Shown here in pieces: positions 3,207-57,699 of a stretch of DNA of 59,420 nucleotides. The stretch's first letter is position 1, and every line of letters starts with the position of its first letter. The stretch covers positions 1 to 59,420 of the forward strand of contig CAYXZV010000005.1 of the NCBI GenBank assembly GCA_964469645.1, in the 5' to 3' direction. This DNA comes from an uncultured Methanosarcinales archaeon. Lineage in GTDB: Archaea > Nanobdellota > Nanobdellia > Woesearchaeales > GW2011-AR4. Both the position numbers and the translations under genes were made by a program. A model generated the notes under the pieces. It was given only the letters and a program-made list of their open reading frames with translations. It was not told the DNA's origin and made no database searches.

Positions 3207-5387
3207 ATGGCAGAAAAGATGGTTGACAGGGTCATGCAGATCATGCAGAAACCCACTAACATAAGGAACATTGCTATTTGCGCTCATATTGATCACGGAA
3301 AAACAACTTTTTCTGATAATCTATTAGCAGGAGCAGGCATGATGTCTAAGGAAGATGCAGGCAAAGCTCTAAAATTGGATTTCCACGAAGACGAGCAGGA
3401 AAGAGGGATAACAATAGATACTGCATCTGTTTCCATGGTTCATAGTTTCGAAAATGAAGAATTCCTGATTAATTTGCTTGACACACCAGGCCACGTCGAT
3501 TTTGGCGGCGATGTTACACGGGCAATGCGTGCATCAGATGGTGCTATTGTTCTTGTGGATGCAGTTGAGAGTATCATGCCTCAAACAGAGACAGTTTTGC
3601 GACAAGCGTTAAGAGAGCTTGTAAAGCCTACATTATTCATAAACAAAGTTGACAGGTTAATTAAAGAGCTGCAATTGACACCTGAACAGATGCAGGAGCG
3701 TTTTATAAAAATAATCAGTTCTGTTAATAAGCTTATAATGGAAATTGCACCTAAGGGTTATGGAGAAAAATGGCAGGTAAATGTTCAGGACGGTTCAGTA
3801 TGTTTTGGTTCTGCATTCCATAATTGGGCATTATCAATTCCATATATGCAGAAAAAAGGCATAACGTTCAAGGATGTCATAGAAGCTTACACTTCTCAGG
3901 ATGACAAATATAAAGAATTAGCGGATAAAGCCCCATTGCACGAGGTTGTTCTTAACATGGTAATAAACCACTTGCCGAATCCTGTTGACTCTCAAGCTTA
4001 CAGGATCCCAAGAATATGGCATGGTGACATGGAAAGCGAAGATGGAAAATCCTTAGTGCAGTGTAACTCTAAAGGTCCTTTATATTTTGTCATAACAAAG
4101 ATTGTCATTGATCCTCAAGCAGGCGAGATATCTGCTGGAAGATTATTTTCAGGAACAGTAACTAAAGGAACTGATGTTTACCTAAACAGATTAAAGCAAA
4201 AATCAAAGATACAGCAGGTTTTTATCTATAACGGGGCAAAAAGAGAGATTGTCGATAATGTTTTGGCTGGAAATGTTTTGGGTGTTGCAGGTGTCAAAGC
4301 AAATGCAGGAGAGACAATAACTTTGGACGAAAATGGAACTGCTTTTGAGAAAATTACCCATATATTTGATCCAGTTGTTACAAAAGCAATAGAAGCCAAG
4401 AAACCAAGCGATCTTCCGAAATTAATTGAAGTTTTAAGGATGGTTGGTAAAGAAGATCCTACAATAAAGATTGAAATCAATGAAGAGACCGGAGAGCATC
4501 TACTGCACGGAATGGGAGAATTACATTTGGAAGTCATAGAAAACCGAATAAAGACAGAGAAAGGTGTTGAAGTTTCAACTTCCCCACCAATAGTTGTTTA
4601 TCGTGAGACAATAACAAAACCTTCCCAGGAGATTGCTGGAAAAACTCCTAACAAGCATAATCTTTTCTTTTTTAAAGCGGAGCCCTTAGAGGATTCAATC
4701 TCTGAAGCCATAAAAAAAGACGAGATACAAGAAGGGAGGATAAAGAAAAAAGATTTGGAATTAAGGGACAAATTAGTAGAATGTGGAATGGATAGCAAGA
4801 CTGCTTTAAAGGTAAAGGACGTTTTTAATGGTAATATGTTTTTGGATATGACCCGTGGTCAGGTGCATGTCGGAGAAGTCATTGAGATGCTTCTGGATAT
4901 GTTCGAGGATGTCATGTCAAAAGGGCCGTTAGCTCATGAACCATGCTTAAAGGTCAAGGTTATGCTTACAGACATGAAACTGCATGAAGATGCAATACAT
5001 CGTGGTCCAGCCCAAGTTTATCCTGCTGTAAGGGAAGGTATCCGTGGAGCGATGTTAACTTCTAGGCCTTTAATTTACGAACCATATCAAATACAAAGGA
5101 TAGAAGCTCCATCAGATTTTTTAGGTGAAATTTCAAAGTTAATATCTAACAAAAGAGGCCAGTTATTGGATGCCCAGCAGGAAGGAAATTTATCCATAAT
5201 TAAAGCTAAGTTGCCTGTAGGGGAGATGTTCGGCTGGTCTTCAGATTTAAGATCCGCTACTGGAGGTAGAGGTTCTAGCAGCTTAGTCGACCAGATGTAT
5301 GAGAAGCTGCCCGAGGAATTACAACCGCGCATTGTTAAACAGATAAGAGACAGGAAAGGTTTGAGTGAAGCCGAGGTAGGAGTTTAA
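3207..5387 (+). CDS. fusA: Archaeal elongation factor 2
   Basis: AHIDHGKT, RGITI, DTPGHVDF, NKVD; diphthamide loop HEDAIHRGPAQ. Confidence 0.98.
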   Translation: MAEKMVDRVMQIMQKPTNIRNIAICAHIDHGKTTFSDNLLAGAGMMSKEDAGKALKLDFHEDEQERGITIDTASVSMVHSFENEEFLINLLDTPGHVDFGGDVTRAMRASDGAIVLVDAVESIMPQTETVLRQALRELVKPTLFINKVDRLIKELQLTPEQMQERFIKIISSVNKLIMEIAPKGYGEKWQVNVQDGSVCFGSAFHNWALSIPYMQKKGITFKDVIEAYTSQDDKYKELADKAPLHEVVLNMVINHLPNPVDSQAYRIPRIWHGDMESEDGKSLVQCNSKGPLYFVITKIVIDPQAGEISAGRLFSGTVTKGTDVYLNRLKQKSKIQQVFIYNGAKREIVDNVLAGNVLGVAGVKANAGETITLDENGTAFEKITHIFDPVVTKAIEAKKPSDLPKLIEVLRMVGKEDPTIKIEINEETGEHLLHGMGELHLEVIENRIKTEKGVEVSTSPPIVVYRETITKPSQEIAGKTPNKHNLFFFKAEPLEDSISEAIKKDEIQEGRIKKKDLELRDKLVECGMDSKTALKVKDVFNGNMFLDMTRGQVHVGEVIEMLLDMFEDVMSKGPLAHEPCLKVKVMLTDMKLHEDAIHRGPAQVYPAVREGIRGAMLTSRPLIYEPYQIQRIEAPSDFLGEISKLISNKRGQLLDAQQEGNLSIIKAKLPVGEMFGWSSDLRSATGGRGSSSLVDQMYEKLPEELQPRIVKQIRDRKGLSEAEVGV

Positions 5388-11821: not shown

Positions 11822-11908
11822 TGGGCCTGCCAGGATTTGAACCTGGGACCAATCGATTTCCAGCATAGCTATCAGTCGATCATTCTAACCAGACTGAACT
11901 ACAGGCCC
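11822..11908 (-). tRNA. tRNA-Ile(GAU) with 12-nt intron at 37/38 (11858-11869)
   Basis: Acceptor GGGCCUG/CAGGCCC; anticodon arm AUCGA-CUGAUA[intron]A-UCGAU; 87 nt = 75 + 12. Confidence 0.9.
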
Positions 11909-52079: not shown

Positions 52080-53162
52080 TTACTCACTTCTCTTTCTCAT
52101 TAATGATGCTACTAGTAAGATTGCTATCAAAACAAGCAATACTTCTCCAACAACCAGAGCAACTAAAAATCCTGAACTTTCGAACAATGATTTTTCCTCA
52201 GTTACTGGTAATGAAGGAGCACTTACTGTTCCAGCACTTACAACGTCTGTAGGAGTTGTGTCTGTTGGAAGATTAACAACAACATCGCTGTCTTCCTCCT
52301 CTTCCTCATCAGCAAAGATCTCACACTGAGCTACAATTAACTCAGCAGTCTCAGTTTCAGTCTCAGCGCCATCATTAAATGTAGCTGTTGATTGTACTGT
52401 GTAGATTCCAGGAGCAACTTCCTGTGGTACTGTCATTGTAAATGTCTTTCTGAATTTGCTGTCATCATCGAATGGATCGTTAGTTAGGTCAAACAGTTCC
52501 CTGAAGCTAACAGCTAGTTCAGCATTAACAATTTCCAATGAAACATCATCTTCATCATCAGCACCTGTGTTTATAACAGTTGTTGATAGCTGAACAGTTC
52601 TGCCGCATTTGATCTCTGAAGGAGTTAATGTATTTCTCAAAAACTTAACTTCATTGTCTTCTTTCTGAACCTCTAGTTCAAGAGCATATTCAACTGCATG
52701 TCCGGTTCCGTTCTCATCGTCACCTTCCACTTCAATCAAAACATCATAGTCTCCTTCGTCAACTTCAAGAGGTATCTTAAATTCAATAGTTACATCATTA
52801 TTCTTTCCGTCTTTTAGATCCTTAATCTCATCTTCTTCATCAAGATCATCATCGTCATCTATACCTTCTATTGTTACTGTAACTTCGATATCTTCAATTT
52901 CAAGTTCTTCTTCATTAGTAAAATTATTTGTTGCCTCTATTGTAAATTTAACAGTGTCTCCTGGTCTTGCTTCTTCTTTTATCTTTTCATCATAATCCAT
53001 ATTCTTGTGAGTCTTGCTTCCAACTTTAACATCAACATCAGTTATAAGAAGTTTTCCGCCGTTGCTTGTACCTGTAATTAAACCATCTTCATTTAGAGCC
53101 ATAGCAATAGGCACAATTAATAGAACCATAAACAATCCCAATATAACACTTAGTTTATTCAT
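52080..53162 (-). CDS. Acidic surface (S-layer/CARDB-like) protein with C-terminal membrane anchor
   Basis: Signal peptide, beta-rich acidic domains, T/P linker, TM helix plus RKRSE. Confidence 0.8.
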   Translation of the reverse strand: MNKLSVILGLFMVLLIVPIAMALNEDGLITGTSNGGKLLITDVDVKVGSKTHKNMDYDEKIKEEARPGDTVKFTIEATNNFTNEEELEIEDIEVTVTIEGIDDDDDLDEEDEIKDLKDGKNNDVTIEFKIPLEVDEGDYDVLIEVEGDDENGTGHAVEYALELEVQKEDNEVKFLRNTLTPSEIKCGRTVQLSTTVINTGADDEDDVSLEIVNAELAVSFRELFDLTNDPFDDDSKFRKTFTMTVPQEVAPGIYTVQSTATFNDGAETETETAELIVAQCEIFADEEEEEDSDVVVNLPTDTTPTDVVSAGTVSAPSLPVTEEKSLFESSGFLVALVVGEVLLVLIAILLVASLMRKRSE

Positions 53163-53380
53163 TTTTTATTGACCCCATATTATTATTTGATTATCTTTAA
53201 CCTGTGAAAACGCTACTAGTATTTAAATGTTTTGTTATTGGACAATGGTAACGCCAAATATGAGCAGCGGTCGAAAAAGCCCTATATATAGTAGTACAAA
53301 AGAACCTTATTCAAATTTAGAATAAATGCTGCACTGATACTTCACTCAACCGGAAGCTTTCATGTTGTGATACATTCAAT

Positions 53381-54493
53381 TTAACAAGCATAGGCTTTTA
53401 AATCAAAAATAAAATCAATAAATTCCTTATCACCGATTGGAGTTATATCATTTACTCTGAATTCTACAATATTTCTTTTAATTGAATCCAAAGGTACAGA
53501 AGCAACTTTTGAGAGTTTAATTAGATATTCAACATTTACATAGTCTCTTTTACTATTAAGAATATTAAAGAACATATTTGGTTGTGCACCAATCAAAAAA
53601 GCAAGTTGTCTCTGGCTAAAATGTTTAATTAAGAATAATTTTCTTTTTAATTCTGAGTTAATTTTGCAACTAAATTTGGTAATTTTTAATTTACTTAAAA
53701 ATTTAAATTCTTTGCGAGCATTCAAACAAAATAAATCAATTTTCCAGAGCTTATGATAATTTTTCCAGTTGGTAATTTGAATATATCTTTCTCCTTTTGT
53801 TTCCTTGAATATCTGCTTTGAAGTAACACCTTCGAATTGTAATAATTTCTGGACAAAATTTGCTAATTTTTCTTCTTTATCAAAAGATAAATGATATGCA
53901 ATGTAGGAGATATAATTCTCTTTTCTCACAATACCGATGCTTCCTTCTGCCGCAAATAAACCTCTTAAAAAAGCTCTTCTTAGTACAGAATTATTTGAAA
54001 AATCATTTTCCAATATCCTTTCAATTATTTTGCCAAAAATATTCCTCAATATAACACTACTAATCTGCATACTAATACATTCTTCTTTGTACCTTTTTGA
54101 GTGTTGGAGGTTAATTTTAGTTGTAGGAACACCAAGATGCTTTGCCCATTTCTCAACACTATTAATTTGAAATATTTTGTACCTTAGTTGATATCTAATA
54201 CCTGTTATTTTTAGATTTAATCTATTTGTGAAAAAGTCAAGCATGAACTTTACCATATCTCCATCTTTAGAAGTAAAATCTAAATGATGTTTATCGTTGG
54301 ATAGTTTACCATCACCTATGTACATACTAACCGCTTCCATAAATTCTTTATCGACATGAATTACTTTTGGAAGGATACTGGGATTAGGAGAACTACCCCT
54401 ACTTTTATTTAAGTAATACACCTTAATCTGATCATCTTCAATTTTTTCTACTATCCAATCTTTTGGAACTAACTTTTCTACATTTATTTCCAT
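53381..54493 (-). CDS. Free-standing two-motif LAGLIDADG endonuclease with C-terminal HTH
   Basis: EAVSMYIGDG and FLRGLFAAEG; FSQRQLAFLIG...YLIKLSKV is HTH-like; SD GGAG before ATG 54493. Confidence 0.85.
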   Translation of the reverse strand: MEINVEKLVPKDWIVEKIEDDQIKVYYLNKSRGSSPNPSILPKVIHVDKEFMEAVSMYIGDGKLSNDKHHLDFTSKDGDMVKFMLDFFTNRLNLKITGIRYQLRYKIFQINSVEKWAKHLGVPTTKINLQHSKRYKEECISMQISSVILRNIFGKIIERILENDFSNNSVLRRAFLRGLFAAEGSIGIVRKENYISYIAYHLSFDKEEKLANFVQKLLQFEGVTSKQIFKETKGERYIQITNWKNYHKLWKIDLFCLNARKEFKFLSKLKITKFSCKINSELKRKLFLIKHFSQRQLAFLIGAQPNMFFNILNSKRDYVNVEYLIKLSKVASVPLDSIKRNIVEFRVNDITPIGDKEFIDFIFDLKAYAC

Positions 54494-54509
54494 TTTGATC
54501 AAACTCCAG

Positions 54510-54658
54510 AATCTCAATCTGTGTTGAGATTTCTTTTCAAATCTTAAAAGAAATCTCTCTGAAGGAAAAAGGGGACGTTTAGCGAATCTGCATAAGTGAT
54601 TTTCTTGTCGTTTTTGACCGAAAATCACAATTTAGCAGATGAGCGTGTCCTCTTTTTC
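54510..54658. ncRNA. Highly structured leader/ncRNA upstream of the LAGLIDADG gene
   Basis: Nested stems 54565-54658; 12-bp hairpin 54526-54557; alternative hairpin 54510-54531. Confidence 0.55.
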
Positions 54659-54732
54659 TAGAATTAGTAGATTAACTCCTTTATATATCTCACGCGCAAA
54701 TGTCCAGTGCAGTATAAGCAATGTCCAGTGGT

Positions 54733-55830
54733 TCAAGGTAGCCATGAATTAGGATTCTTAAGTTTCTTAGGAAGGTAATCACTCATAACAAAATTTAACC
54801 CATGTTTAGACAACGCTTGTTGCTCTGCTCTTACTTTCATCTTTATCTGTTGCTGAATTGCATTCTGCCATTCCTTATAGTGCTTTATGAATGGATCATT
54901 CTTAAGAGCATCTTTGCCCCTCTTAATGTCTACTTCCTTCAAAGGATGTGTAGGTAATTTATAATCTACAATATCTTGGGGAGTGATTCCTATAAATTTT
55001 GCATTAGGCACACAAAAATATTGATTAATATGCGCAGCGTTTCCTGAGCCAACCTTAAGACTTCGATATATATTTGCGTACGCGTACATGTCACCATCTG
55101 CGAAAACATATACATCTAATTTCCTCTCATCACTTAATCTACGAATAAATCTACGTAAGGCTCTGGTAGGCACACCACCCATAGAAACTAAAATACAATT
55201 AGCCTTTTTCCAATAGTTATGTTTCACAAGCCTTTGAAACATACCTGCTGTCTCTATCGCTAAAATGAATTTAGCATTGGTTTCAAATTTCAGATGCTCA
55301 ACAGATGTAGGTATTGAATATGCACCGGAACCAAACTTAGTACAATCAATCTTTATCTGCTTCCCGGTATCAGGATCTTTGTCAACAACAATTAATTTTC
55401 CTGCAACTTCTCCACCTTTTTCTTCCGGAATAAAACCAAGCTGTTCGCGATTAACCATCATCATCGCTTCCAAGTCATCCATGACTGTATCAGATTCCGG
55501 CTGCTCCTTGAAGGCAGCTTCTGCCCAGTTCTTAGAGATATAGTACATCTCTCTCTTTGTTGTTATGTCCTCTTCTTTGATAATGCTTTTTGCATGCGCC
55601 ATCATGCGCAAAGTCTGCGCAAAAGTTTTAATAGTAGAAGCGGTCATAGTCCTTTCCTTCATCTTCCCCAACAATTCAAAAAAACCTTCTTTAGGATCAT
55701 ACTTTACATTAGTCAATGCACGAAGAGGCATCTTTAGCTCAGGAGCTTTTTTCTTTTTTATTCTGGAATAGACATTACTTGCTGTATCTTCTATTTCCTT
55801 TATCACTGAAGTGGATGACGTTTTTTTCAT
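54733..55830 (-). CDS. top6A: DNA topoisomerase VI subunit A
   Basis: TKREMYY (catalytic Tyr), AIET, GVP, DGD, EQQA. Confidence 0.96.
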   Translation of the reverse strand: MKKTSSTSVIKEIEDTASNVYSRIKKKKAPELKMPLRALTNVKYDPKEGFFELLGKMKERTMTASTIKTFAQTLRMMAHAKSIIKEEDITTKREMYYISKNWAEAAFKEQPESDTVMDDLEAMMMVNREQLGFIPEEKGGEVAGKLIVVDKDPDTGKQIKIDCTKFGSGAYSIPTSVEHLKFETNAKFILAIETAGMFQRLVKHNYWKKANCILVSMGGVPTRALRRFIRRLSDERKLDVYVFADGDMYAYANIYRSLKVGSGNAAHINQYFCVPNAKFIGITPQDIVDYKLPTHPLKEVDIKRGKDALKNDPFIKHYKEWQNAIQQQIKMKVRAEQQALSKHGLNFVMSDYLPKKLKNPNSWLP

Positions 55831-55891
55831 TTGATTTGTGTATTATTTTATTTATTTTTATTTGTATTGAATTTTTTTTATTGTTTTTAAA

Positions 55892-57589
55892 TTATTGAAC
55901 TTCTTTCGATTCTTTTTCTCCTTTTTCCTCACTACCATCTTCTGCACCTTCATCTTTTCCTATCTTCGCAAACTCTTCATCATATTCCAAATTCTTGGCT
56001 TCTATCTCTTCCAATGCGCCTCGCTTTTTCTCAAGAATTTCCGACAATAAACTTTCAATCTTTTTCTCATCCGCATCTTTCAATTTTAACAGTTCCTTTA
56101 ATGCATCTCCAACATGAGGTATGAACATCTTTATGTAATCTCTTTTCTTGCCTTCAAACTGAATGCGCCTCTTCTTGCCTACATAGCTAGCAAGCTTCCT
56201 GCCACAATCCTGCAAAGCCAATTTGATCTCTTTGACAATCTCAGGATAATGTGCTATAGCTTCCTTGCTCTCAGAAGTAAAAGGAACCCATACAGAAGCG
56301 ATATGGACAACTAAAGTTACAGGTCCTATAGGCAACGCTCCACGACTCTGGCTTAACCCATAATTTCTCCAAACAGTATTTATTACAGATCTAGTGACAG
56401 CACAAGCACCTTGTTGATACAATAAAGGAACCCTATTTGCATATCTTAAAAGATGCATGCTTTCTTCTGCATTTTGTTCACCACCATAAGCAATGCCTGC
56501 TTCAACAATAAATGGATTGCCTCTGTAAACGCTTGGAGGCCTTGTGATTGCAGCATAAAACTCTGCATTTATCTCTTTTTTCAAACCTTTTTCCAACAAT
56601 TCCTGGCCAATTGGGCTTATGCAATCAATTGGAGGAGAAATTATTTTTGTTTTTTTAATACCTTCAATTAATTTCTCTGCAATTTCTCTGGAAACATTTT
56701 TTGGTTTTGTATTCGGAAGTACAGCAGCATTCTCACAGATCTGCTTAGCAGTTCCCGAACCGACTCTTGAAAATTCGCTCGTCAAAAAACTTTGCAGTGT
56801 CCTTGCTTCTGTCATACTAAGCATAGACAACAAGACACCAATCTCTATGCCATACGGATGCGGTTTGATTTCAACAGCTTTCTTAGGCAGCTGTTCAGAA
56901 GCTTTTGCGAAAATTATCTGCTCAGCTTTTGGATTGGTATATATTAATGTAATATGTGGATTAACGATAGCAGTTTGTTTCAGATATTGATCAACACTTT
57001 GGTCGCCTTTCTGGTAACTTCCTTCTAAATCCATTTCTATTCTTGTTCCATGCTCTTTATTCCATTTGACAGTCTCCTCTTTTAAGATTTGAGGTTTGTT
57101 ATTCTGTGTATCGATATGCAGCTCATAGTATTGTGCATCATGTCTCTTGCTTATTCTGGATGTAATGCGAGCAGGCTTTCCTGTTGTTAATTGTGCATAC
57201 AAGACAGAAGCGCTTATTCCAATACCTTGTTGACCTCGCGATTGGGACAATTTGAAGAATTTGCTTCCATACAACAATTTTGCAAAAATATTCGGAATCT
57301 GTTTCTTGACAATCCCCGGACCATTGTCTTCGACAACAACCCTGAACTTATTTTCTGACAGCTCTATAAGCTCGACATTTATTTCTGGTAAAACATTAGC
57401 TTCCTCGCAAGCATCCAAAGAATTATCAACTGCTTCCTTGATTGTAGTCAACAATGATTTTCTGGGATTATCAAACCCAAGCAAATGCCTGTTCTTCTCG
57501 AAAAAACTGGCTACAGAAATCTCTCTTTGCTTCTTTGCCAACTCAATTGCTATCGGCAGTTCTTCTTTTTTAGATTCCTCTTTTGCCAT
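55892..57589 (-). CDS. top6B: DNA topoisomerase VI subunit B
   Basis: [39 protein letters not shown]. Confidence 0.97.
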
Positions 57590-57699
57590 TTCCAAAAATT
57601 TAAGATAGAACTTGTTTAAATAATTAATTGTTTTGAAGAATTTATTTTTATTAGTTTTACTACAAAGGTTTAAAAGTTTCAACCTTTTACCAACTTTTT

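Follow-up and report, generated by a model that had tools for sequence, protein, structure and literature searches.

The window analysed here, the whole 59,420-nt stretch of DNA, is contig C5 of a 1.13-Mb assembly with 35% G+C. On its minus strand top6B and top6A are followed by a gene for a LAGLIDADG protein, and the 239-nt spacer between top6A and this gene is the site of the whole finding (Table 1). The initial annotation had read the spacer as the structured leader of the LAGLIDADG gene, with a TATA box, a long nested stem and two competing hairpins, and all of these elements could be located at their coordinates. We refer to the long stem as HP1, to the structure adjacent to the Shine-Dalgarno (SD) sequence as HP2, and to the minus strand as the gene strand. 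In a separate part of the window (11822-11908, minus strand), ARAGORN predicts a tRNA of 87 nt whose type is undetermined and whose anticodon is called with two bases; it is probably an intron-containing tRNA.

Table 1. Features of the top6A-LAGLIDADG locus, with positions in the window.
Feature	Position	Strand	Details
top6B	55892-57682	minus	
top6A	54733-55830	minus	Pfam TOP6A/Spo11 domains; stop codon 54733-54735
Inserted block (promoter, leader, LAGLIDADG gene, 129-nt tail)	53252-54732	minus	No equivalent in seven same-genus genomes
Distal CACTGGACATT box	54720-54730	minus	Begins 2 nt past the top6A stop codon; identical to the proximal box and in the same orientation, at a distance of 21 nt
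Proximal CACTGGACATT box	54699-54709	minus	Presumed operator of a common transcription factor; near-invariant in related cassettes
BRE-like stretch and TATA box	54680-54696	minus	TATA box TATATAAA at 54680-54687; TATA block conserved, at a fixed distance to box and HP1
HP1	54565-54658	minus	94-nt three-helix hairpin from the predicted transcription start to CUUUUUC; found by folding; covariance model R1, 121 bits
HP1 basal helix	54647-54658 with 54565-54576	minus	GAAAAAGAGGAC with GTCCCCTTTTTC
Anti-SD segment	54558-54564	minus	CUUCAGA; pairs with UCUGGAG in the minimum-energy fold, around the 12-bp hairpin
HP2 type B inner 12-bp hairpin (segments 1:2)	54526-54557	minus	54546-54557 with 54526-54537; arms 100% complementary
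Alternative 8-bp hairpin (segments 2:3)	54510-54531	minus	54524-54531 with 54510-54517; -7.5 kcal/mol, z = -4.4
Shine-Dalgarno region	54504-54510	minus	UCUGGAG; 10 nt 5' of the ATG
LAGLIDADG gene	53381-54493	minus	370 aa, C-terminal HTH-like tail; Pfam LAGLIDADG_3, E = 1.1e-7; ATG 54491-54493
Tail of the inserted block	53252-53380	minus	129 nt, 3' of the LAGLIDADG stop; no counterpart in relatives

In seven genomes of the same genus, top6A and the surface-protein gene that lies beyond the insertion in the window are neighbours without a LAGLIDADG gene in between; unrelated spacers of 168-1227 nt occupy the gap. Homology between the window and these relatives is lost at most about 25 nt past the top6A stop and is regained at about 53251. 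Because these edges lie directly beside the top6A stop and at about 53251, promoter, leader and gene together constitute one 1.48-kb insertion, and the locus displays the presence/absence polymorphism at an otherwise syntenic site that marks mobile free-standing homing-endonuclease genes. The tally of top6A relatives, like that of the covariance-model matches given below, includes one unpublished genome (G005), whose loci were excluded from the alignments and on which no individual claim depends.

Within HP1, the basal helix is continued by inner helices in which ATCTGC pairs with GCAGAT, GTGATTTTC with GAAAATCAC, and GTC with GAC. The 256-nt region folded on the gene strand to -66.7 kcal/mol, compared to -48.2 +/- 4.2 kcal/mol for shuffled sequences (z = -4.4; none of 200 shuffles equalled it), and the opposite strand of the same region gave z = -5.0. 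A search of Rfam 15 over positions 53000-56000 on both strands, with E-values up to 10, returned nothing near a gathering threshold; the best matches were at chance level (snoR27, 21.7 bits against a threshold of 41; mir-202, 17.7 bits against 51), and the region thus matches none of the Rfam families. A tRNA or split-tRNA identity for HP1 was rejected, as ARAGORN finds none there. Nor did the literature searched contain a description of the arrangement.

The same arrangement recurs well beyond this locus. The box together with HP1 is found three times in this genome, on C5, on C28 (81% identity) and on C38 (70%), each time preceding a LAGLIDADG gene; compared by BLASTP, the proteins that these genes encode either share 33% identity or show no detectable similarity. 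When 151 related genomes were searched with a covariance model of HP1 (R1), 65 of them gave more than 250 matches in all, with up to 16 per genome; the matches covered 51 of the 69 genomes in the same family and extended to several further families of the order. An exact HP1 24-mer was also present in 106 metagenome stretches. (A scan of genome contigs for the basal-stem pattern produced many chance bacterial matches, which the covariance model removed.) Placing 31 loci side by side, and measuring spacings in 100 copies, revealed a constant order: the box, about 10 nt, the TATA box, 20-22 nt, HP1 with the consensus GAAAAAGAGAAC ... GTTCTCTTTTTC, about 6 nt, HP2, 7-9 nt and the ATG. An open reading frame (ORF) lies at a constrained distance downstream in 98 of 100 HP1 copies, with the start codon 41-47 nt past HP1 in 67 of the 100. 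Nearly all genes that follow the cassette are of LAGLIDADG type. Among 29 downstream proteins 20 matched LAGLIDADG_3, and others matched LAGLIDADG_2, Hom_end or the homing-endonuclease-associated HNH_repeat. These proteins share a mean column identity of 14%, compared to a mean pairwise identity of 74% for HP1. What had been annotated as a nuclease-associated structured RNA is therefore a nuclease-associated structured element, but it is not the leader of a single gene: it is a real, conserved and previously undescribed promoter-plus-leader module, or cassette, that is portable among the mobile LAGLIDADG genes of Woesearchaeota.

The HP1 alignment shows that its pairing is under selection. In 100 distinct copies, 23 of 32 pairs were altered on both sides (217 cells), 86.6% of cells remained paired, and none of 500 shuffles equalled this result, while slid alignments yielded 7-12 such pairs. 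The compensatory changes include U-A/A-U (60:38), G-C/C-G (68:15) and C-G/U-A (36:36). The absence of covariation had been named among the outcomes that would count against a structured leader; covariation is present both here and in the commoner form of HP2, described below. The compensatory changes, together with an identity spread of 51-100%, argue against conservation purely by recent transfer of identical DNA. Concerted evolution was likewise rejected as the source of the conservation, given that identity is 78% within genomes and 74% between them and that the nearest neighbour of a copy comes from the same genome in 20 of 76 cases.

Genomic context points to a preferred setting for the cassettes. 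Upstream neighbours of the 100 copies (loci L009-L229) were tandem in 42 cases and divergent in 8; the co-directional upstream gene ends at most 50 nt from the box in 38 cases and 0-5 nt from it in 13, which suggests, from gene order, that cassettes insert at the 3' ends of host genes. In a genome of another genus (G030), with only 36% identity in top6A, a cassette likewise lies just past that gene (locus L243, G030:C16:96000-99823, cassette at about 99170-99330), where it precedes an unrelated 281-aa LAGLIDADG gene. A common homing site at top6A was considered and rejected, as the nucleases of the window and of G030 are unrelated (E = 0.048).

Of 100 related cassettes, 89 carry the box in nearly invariant form, with 1.7-1.9 bits at each position, and 11 have no box within 80 nt; a second upstream box, as in the window, is present in many related copies. 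The distance from the end of the TATA box to the first G of HP1 is 20-22 nt in 67 of the 89 copies, and a T precedes that G. The length of this spacer of about 21 nt is kept and its sequence is not, and this pattern, together with the T before the first G, fits transcription starting at the first paired base of HP1, predicted for the window at about 54658. The TATA box of the initial annotation is thus confirmed, and the regular spacing lends support, at the level of sequence, to its proposal that the 5' end of the message would lie at the base of the stem of about 95 nt.

When the genome was searched with the 239-nt spacer, a 31-nt block of it, GCACTGGACATTTGCGCGTGAGATATATAAA, proved to recur at 19 sites. 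About ten LAGLIDADG genes are headed by the box, and so are genes of other kinds: sites outside the window that carry the CACTGGACAT-TATA block (G000 C10:23675-23705, C29:410-440, C44:4248-4278, and C23:3454-3484 and 4131-4161) precede genes for MCM, a Cas4/PD-(D/E)XK nuclease, an N6/N4 DNA methylase and two small AbrB-like/DUF2683 proteins. None of these non-nuclease genes has HP1 or HP2, and the two hairpins occur together at just three nuclease genes of the genome, those on C5, C28 and C38. HP1 and HP2 are therefore specific to nuclease genes. The box, which heads nuclease genes as well as replication and repair genes, would be a host regulatory site common to both and plausibly tied to replication or repair; its distribution suggests an operator for a replication/repair regulon in which the nuclease genes take part.

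Two further box sites in the genome are non-coding (G000 C1:14277-14500, plus strand, and C49:650-835, minus strand). One of these promoters is followed by tRNA-like fragments and, about 180 nt downstream, by a tRNA-like sequence, as judged by eye; the other is followed by a GC-rich hairpin, GAGGCAGGGAAG...CCCTGCCTC, and could give rise to a small RNA. In addition, a near-palindromic motif, TTTTCAATATAGAAAATAA / TTTTCTATATTGAAAATAA, lies directly 5' of the box at five sites of this genome (G000 C49:836-855, C1:17021-17040, C13:15719-15738, C13:17617-17636 and C24:1028-1047), four of which head ORFs (two with LAGLIDADG_3 matches) and one of which has no ORF. This motif may be a further conserved module.

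HP2 occurs in two forms, both of which bring the SD into a helix with an upstream anti-SD segment. The commoner type A reads CUCCAAAGUYUUU ... AAAACUUUGGAG-G. In 67 copies, 10 of its 12 pairs were altered on both sides and 90% of cells were paired, and none of 500 shuffles matched this; in 55 of 71 copies, 3-4 nucleotides of the SD are paired in the minimum-energy fold. The anti-SD of type A has often changed from C to U while the SD stays G, giving U.G at three pairs in 13, 5 and 2 copies, respectively, and such U.G pairs opposite a fixed SD are the signature of a gene-strand RNA that needs its SD. The window carries the rarer type B, found in about 12-15 of 100 leaders, in which HP2 is longer and the SD and anti-SD sequences differ from those of type A. 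Here an outer anti-SD:SD helix encloses an inner hairpin of segments 1 and 2, segment 1 is repeated further downstream, and this repeat, segment 3, is able to pair with segment 2 instead. In the window the 8-bp and 12-bp hairpins share six bases, AAUCUC, and the 8-bp hairpin abuts the SD on its 5' side, so that the competition between them described in the initial annotation is borne out. Type-B leaders were compared sequence by sequence, as the MAFFT alignment was out of register on the 5' arm. The 2:3 hairpin is found in 9 of 12 of them, with energies of -5.8 to -11.1 kcal/mol, z <= -3.2 and compensatory changes, although its sequences vary (AAUCUCAA/UUGAGAUU, AAUCUCU/AGAGAUU, GAAUUCUUA/UAAGAGUUC). 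Because the hairpin is kept in these leaders despite different sequences, the mutually exclusive hairpins are a conserved feature.

Both marks of ribosome-binding-site sequestration, an SD held in a stable helix with an upstream anti-SD and covariation of that pairing, were found. In the modelled ensemble of the window leader the SD nucleotides are 69-98% paired. Masking of the ribosome-binding site by HP2, which would repress translation, is thus well supported by sequence comparison and folding. The proposal that the two hairpins form an expression-limiting switch fared less evenly: the part adjacent to the SD has the design of a mask for the ribosome-binding site, but forcing the 2:3 hairpin in the window leader costs 4.1 kcal/mol (-49.5 versus -53.6), and in the model the SD is paired in both states. 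No mechanism of SD release is visible in this thermodynamic treatment of the two competing HP2 hairpins of the window.

From these observations we propose, as the explanation that we think probable, that the cassette is a portable control unit of free-standing LAGLIDADG homing-endonuclease genes that limits their expression. A promoter with one or two CACTGGACAT boxes 5' of the BRE/TATA element would direct transcription from the first G of GAAAAAG, so that the nuclease mRNA would begin with the fully paired HP1 of about 95 nt, ending in a run of U5. HP2 would then pair the SD with the upstream anti-SD, and the message would be made and be poorly translated unless HP2 were opened; the window HP2 would be the rarer three-segment form of this device, in which two inner hairpins compete. 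The 1.48-kb insertion directly after the top6A stop would have brought in promoter, leader and gene jointly. The most likely effect is that nuclease production is kept low or conditional. As for HP1 itself, it might act as a stabiliser of the 5' end, as a promoter-proximal attenuator by means of its U5 run, or as a terminator for the upstream host gene.

One property of HP1 complicates this proposal. It had been noted that some pairs of the leader are G-U only on the plus strand, and the basal stem does contain A.C on the gene strand that becomes G.U on the plus strand. Across the copies, the non-Watson-Crick pairs of HP1 on the gene strand comprised 199 A.C and 61 G.U cells; parsimony on a tree, with the outermost pairs excluded, counted 83 versus 24 wobble events in favour of the opposite strand, and interior G.U pairs in HP1 folds favoured that strand by 149 to 17, compared to 51 versus 29 in the HP2 control. 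The opposite strand was the stabler one in all 100 copies (mean -35.8 versus -27.2 kcal/mol). The wobbles of HP1 thus fit the strand opposite the gene and those of HP2 the gene strand, and an RNA role of HP1 on the gene strand only does not predict the A.C excess. The much weaker skew of HP2, together with the gene-strand U.G pairs at its anti-SD, makes a general mutational bias an unlikely cause of the HP1 asymmetry. Two consensus mismatches (HP1 pair 27-140, and GUCUUU versus AAAAAC in HP2) are T-to-C changes that break gene-strand T4/T5 runs, and these changes may explain part of the wobble skew.

The asymmetry would be accounted for if HP1 acted on the opposite strand, either as a cis-antisense small RNA against the first ~95 nt of the mRNA or as a terminator or insulator hairpin that keeps antisense transcription out of the upstream host gene, with HP2 still serving as the gene-strand translational mask. 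The wobble counts and the greater stability in every copy agree with such a role, as does the T5 run that ends the hairpin on both strands because its base is A5/T5; moreover, at a distance of 20-25 nt from HP1, the loop of HP2 has the opposite-strand sequence TTTTTTATTTT, and the cassettes mostly follow a co-directional host gene, in 13 cases with its stop almost at the box. However, the T-rich block belongs to type A only, and the type-B HP2 of the window is without such a loop. A scan with a matrix built from the BRE/TATA elements of the cassettes, and hence for their own promoter type only, gave a median best score of 2.7 on the opposite strand compared to 2.5 expected by chance; of the two features that would be looked for in cis-antisense control, better preservation of the hairpin on the opposite strand was found and a promoter there was not. 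The fixed TATA-HP1 spacing on the gene strand, with its non-conserved spacer, also points to a 5' end on the gene strand, and the T-to-C changes could account for part of the asymmetry with no function on the opposite strand. Weighing these points, we regard an opposite-strand function of HP1 as possible, if rather unlikely. The more particular version, in which HP1 is strand-asymmetric by design, forming a stable hairpin RNA on the opposite strand (an antisense regulator or a host-gene terminator) and being deliberately weakened on the gene strand, we hold to be unlikely.

The run of five T residues also bears on whether HP1 might mainly be a small RNA gene of its own. Oligo-T runs are a known archaeal termination signal, and transcription that stopped in the U5 run would yield an abundant, blunt hairpin RNA of about 95 nt, with rare read-through producing the nuclease mRNA. 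The predicted start at the first paired base is in keeping with this, and the A5/U5 base is kept in 79-93% of copies with almost no replacement by G-C, which exceeds what pairing needs. On the other hand, HP1 almost never occurs outside the HP2-SD-ORF context, the ORF following it nearly without exception; no trans target is evident, other T4 runs within HP1 are conserved too, and the wobble asymmetry contradicts a purely gene-strand RNA. A small RNA as the main product of HP1 is for these reasons improbable.

HP1 is long, imperfectly palindromic and bounded by terminal inverted repeats of 12 bp, a form that recalls a DNA-level element without any RNA role, such as a miniature inverted-repeat transposable element or a recombination hairpin, and the one-strand G.T wobbles could be traces of a single-stranded DNA intermediate. 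HP1 is, however, not dispersed independently: this genome holds exactly three copies, all of them within the cassette, and of 100 related copies, 89 have the box at a constant distance and almost every one is accompanied by HP2 and an ORF. Homology between copies spans both flanks, no target-site duplications were seen, and the similar identities within and between genomes indicate that there has been no recent burst of HP1 copies. We consider this reading very improbable. A MITE- or REP-like repeat was rejected on the same lack of independent dispersal, and a comparison with integron attC sites was dropped, as the copies are single, dispersed and located 5' rather than 3' of the ORF.

The expression-limiting cassette that we favour has its closest parallel in the homing-endonuclease genes of phage T4 and its relatives. 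Leader hairpins that sequester the ribosome-binding site have been described for I-TevI, I-TevII, I-TevIII, segB and mobE of Aeh1 (PMC2988022). As in those phage genes, where the SD lies about 8 nt from the start codon, a good SD is locked in a stable hairpin that would limit translation, here by prediction, and the nuclease genes are free-standing and lie just 3' of host genes. In contrast, each phage gene has a hairpin of its own, with no sequence relationship to the others, whereas a single conserved cassette stands before hundreds of unrelated genes in an archaeal order. Unmasked transcripts arise in T4 from a late promoter located within the hairpin; such a promoter is not supported here, where the best gene-strand scores across HP2 have a median of 3.9, compared to 2.5 by chance and 12.2 for the real cassette promoters. 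The T4-type systems also have no counterpart of HP1 or of the common upstream box, and there is no homology between the two.

Other likenesses concern the strand and the position of HP1. IS10 RNA-IN/RNA-OUT and type I toxin-antitoxin RNAs such as hok/sok combine a folded, translationally silent leader with an antisense regulator. The cassette resembles them in that a potentially harmful gene of a mobile element has a folded leader and that the hairpin folds better on the opposite strand; it differs in that no opposite-strand promoter was found and that an antisense RNA confined to HP1 would leave the SD uncovered. The stabiliser stem-loops at the 5' termini of bacterial mRNAs such as ompA and aprE evolved individually and are defined by experiment. 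HP1 shares with them, and with promoter-proximal attenuators, a hairpin that is predicted to begin at the first transcribed nucleotide and is followed by a U-run, but its primary sequence is conserved far beyond the needs of a generic stabiliser. We know of nothing comparable to the ompA and aprE stabilisers that has been described for archaeal mRNAs.

Homing endonucleases cut chromosomes, and how cells and elements restrain them is a general question that, to our knowledge, has been answered in detail only for the T4-type phages; for DPANN archaea, we are aware of almost no regulation at the RNA level. The cassette would offer a new family of structured RNA, or of strand-specific hairpins, for Rfam, a likely operator of a replication/repair regulon, and a small natural component with which expression could be controlled in archaea. 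HP1 also poses a concrete puzzle with its strand paradox. If the strand-asymmetric reading of HP1 were true, the cassette would be an archaeal 'safety harness' at the RNA level, one that lets homing-endonuclease genes settle beside essential genes.
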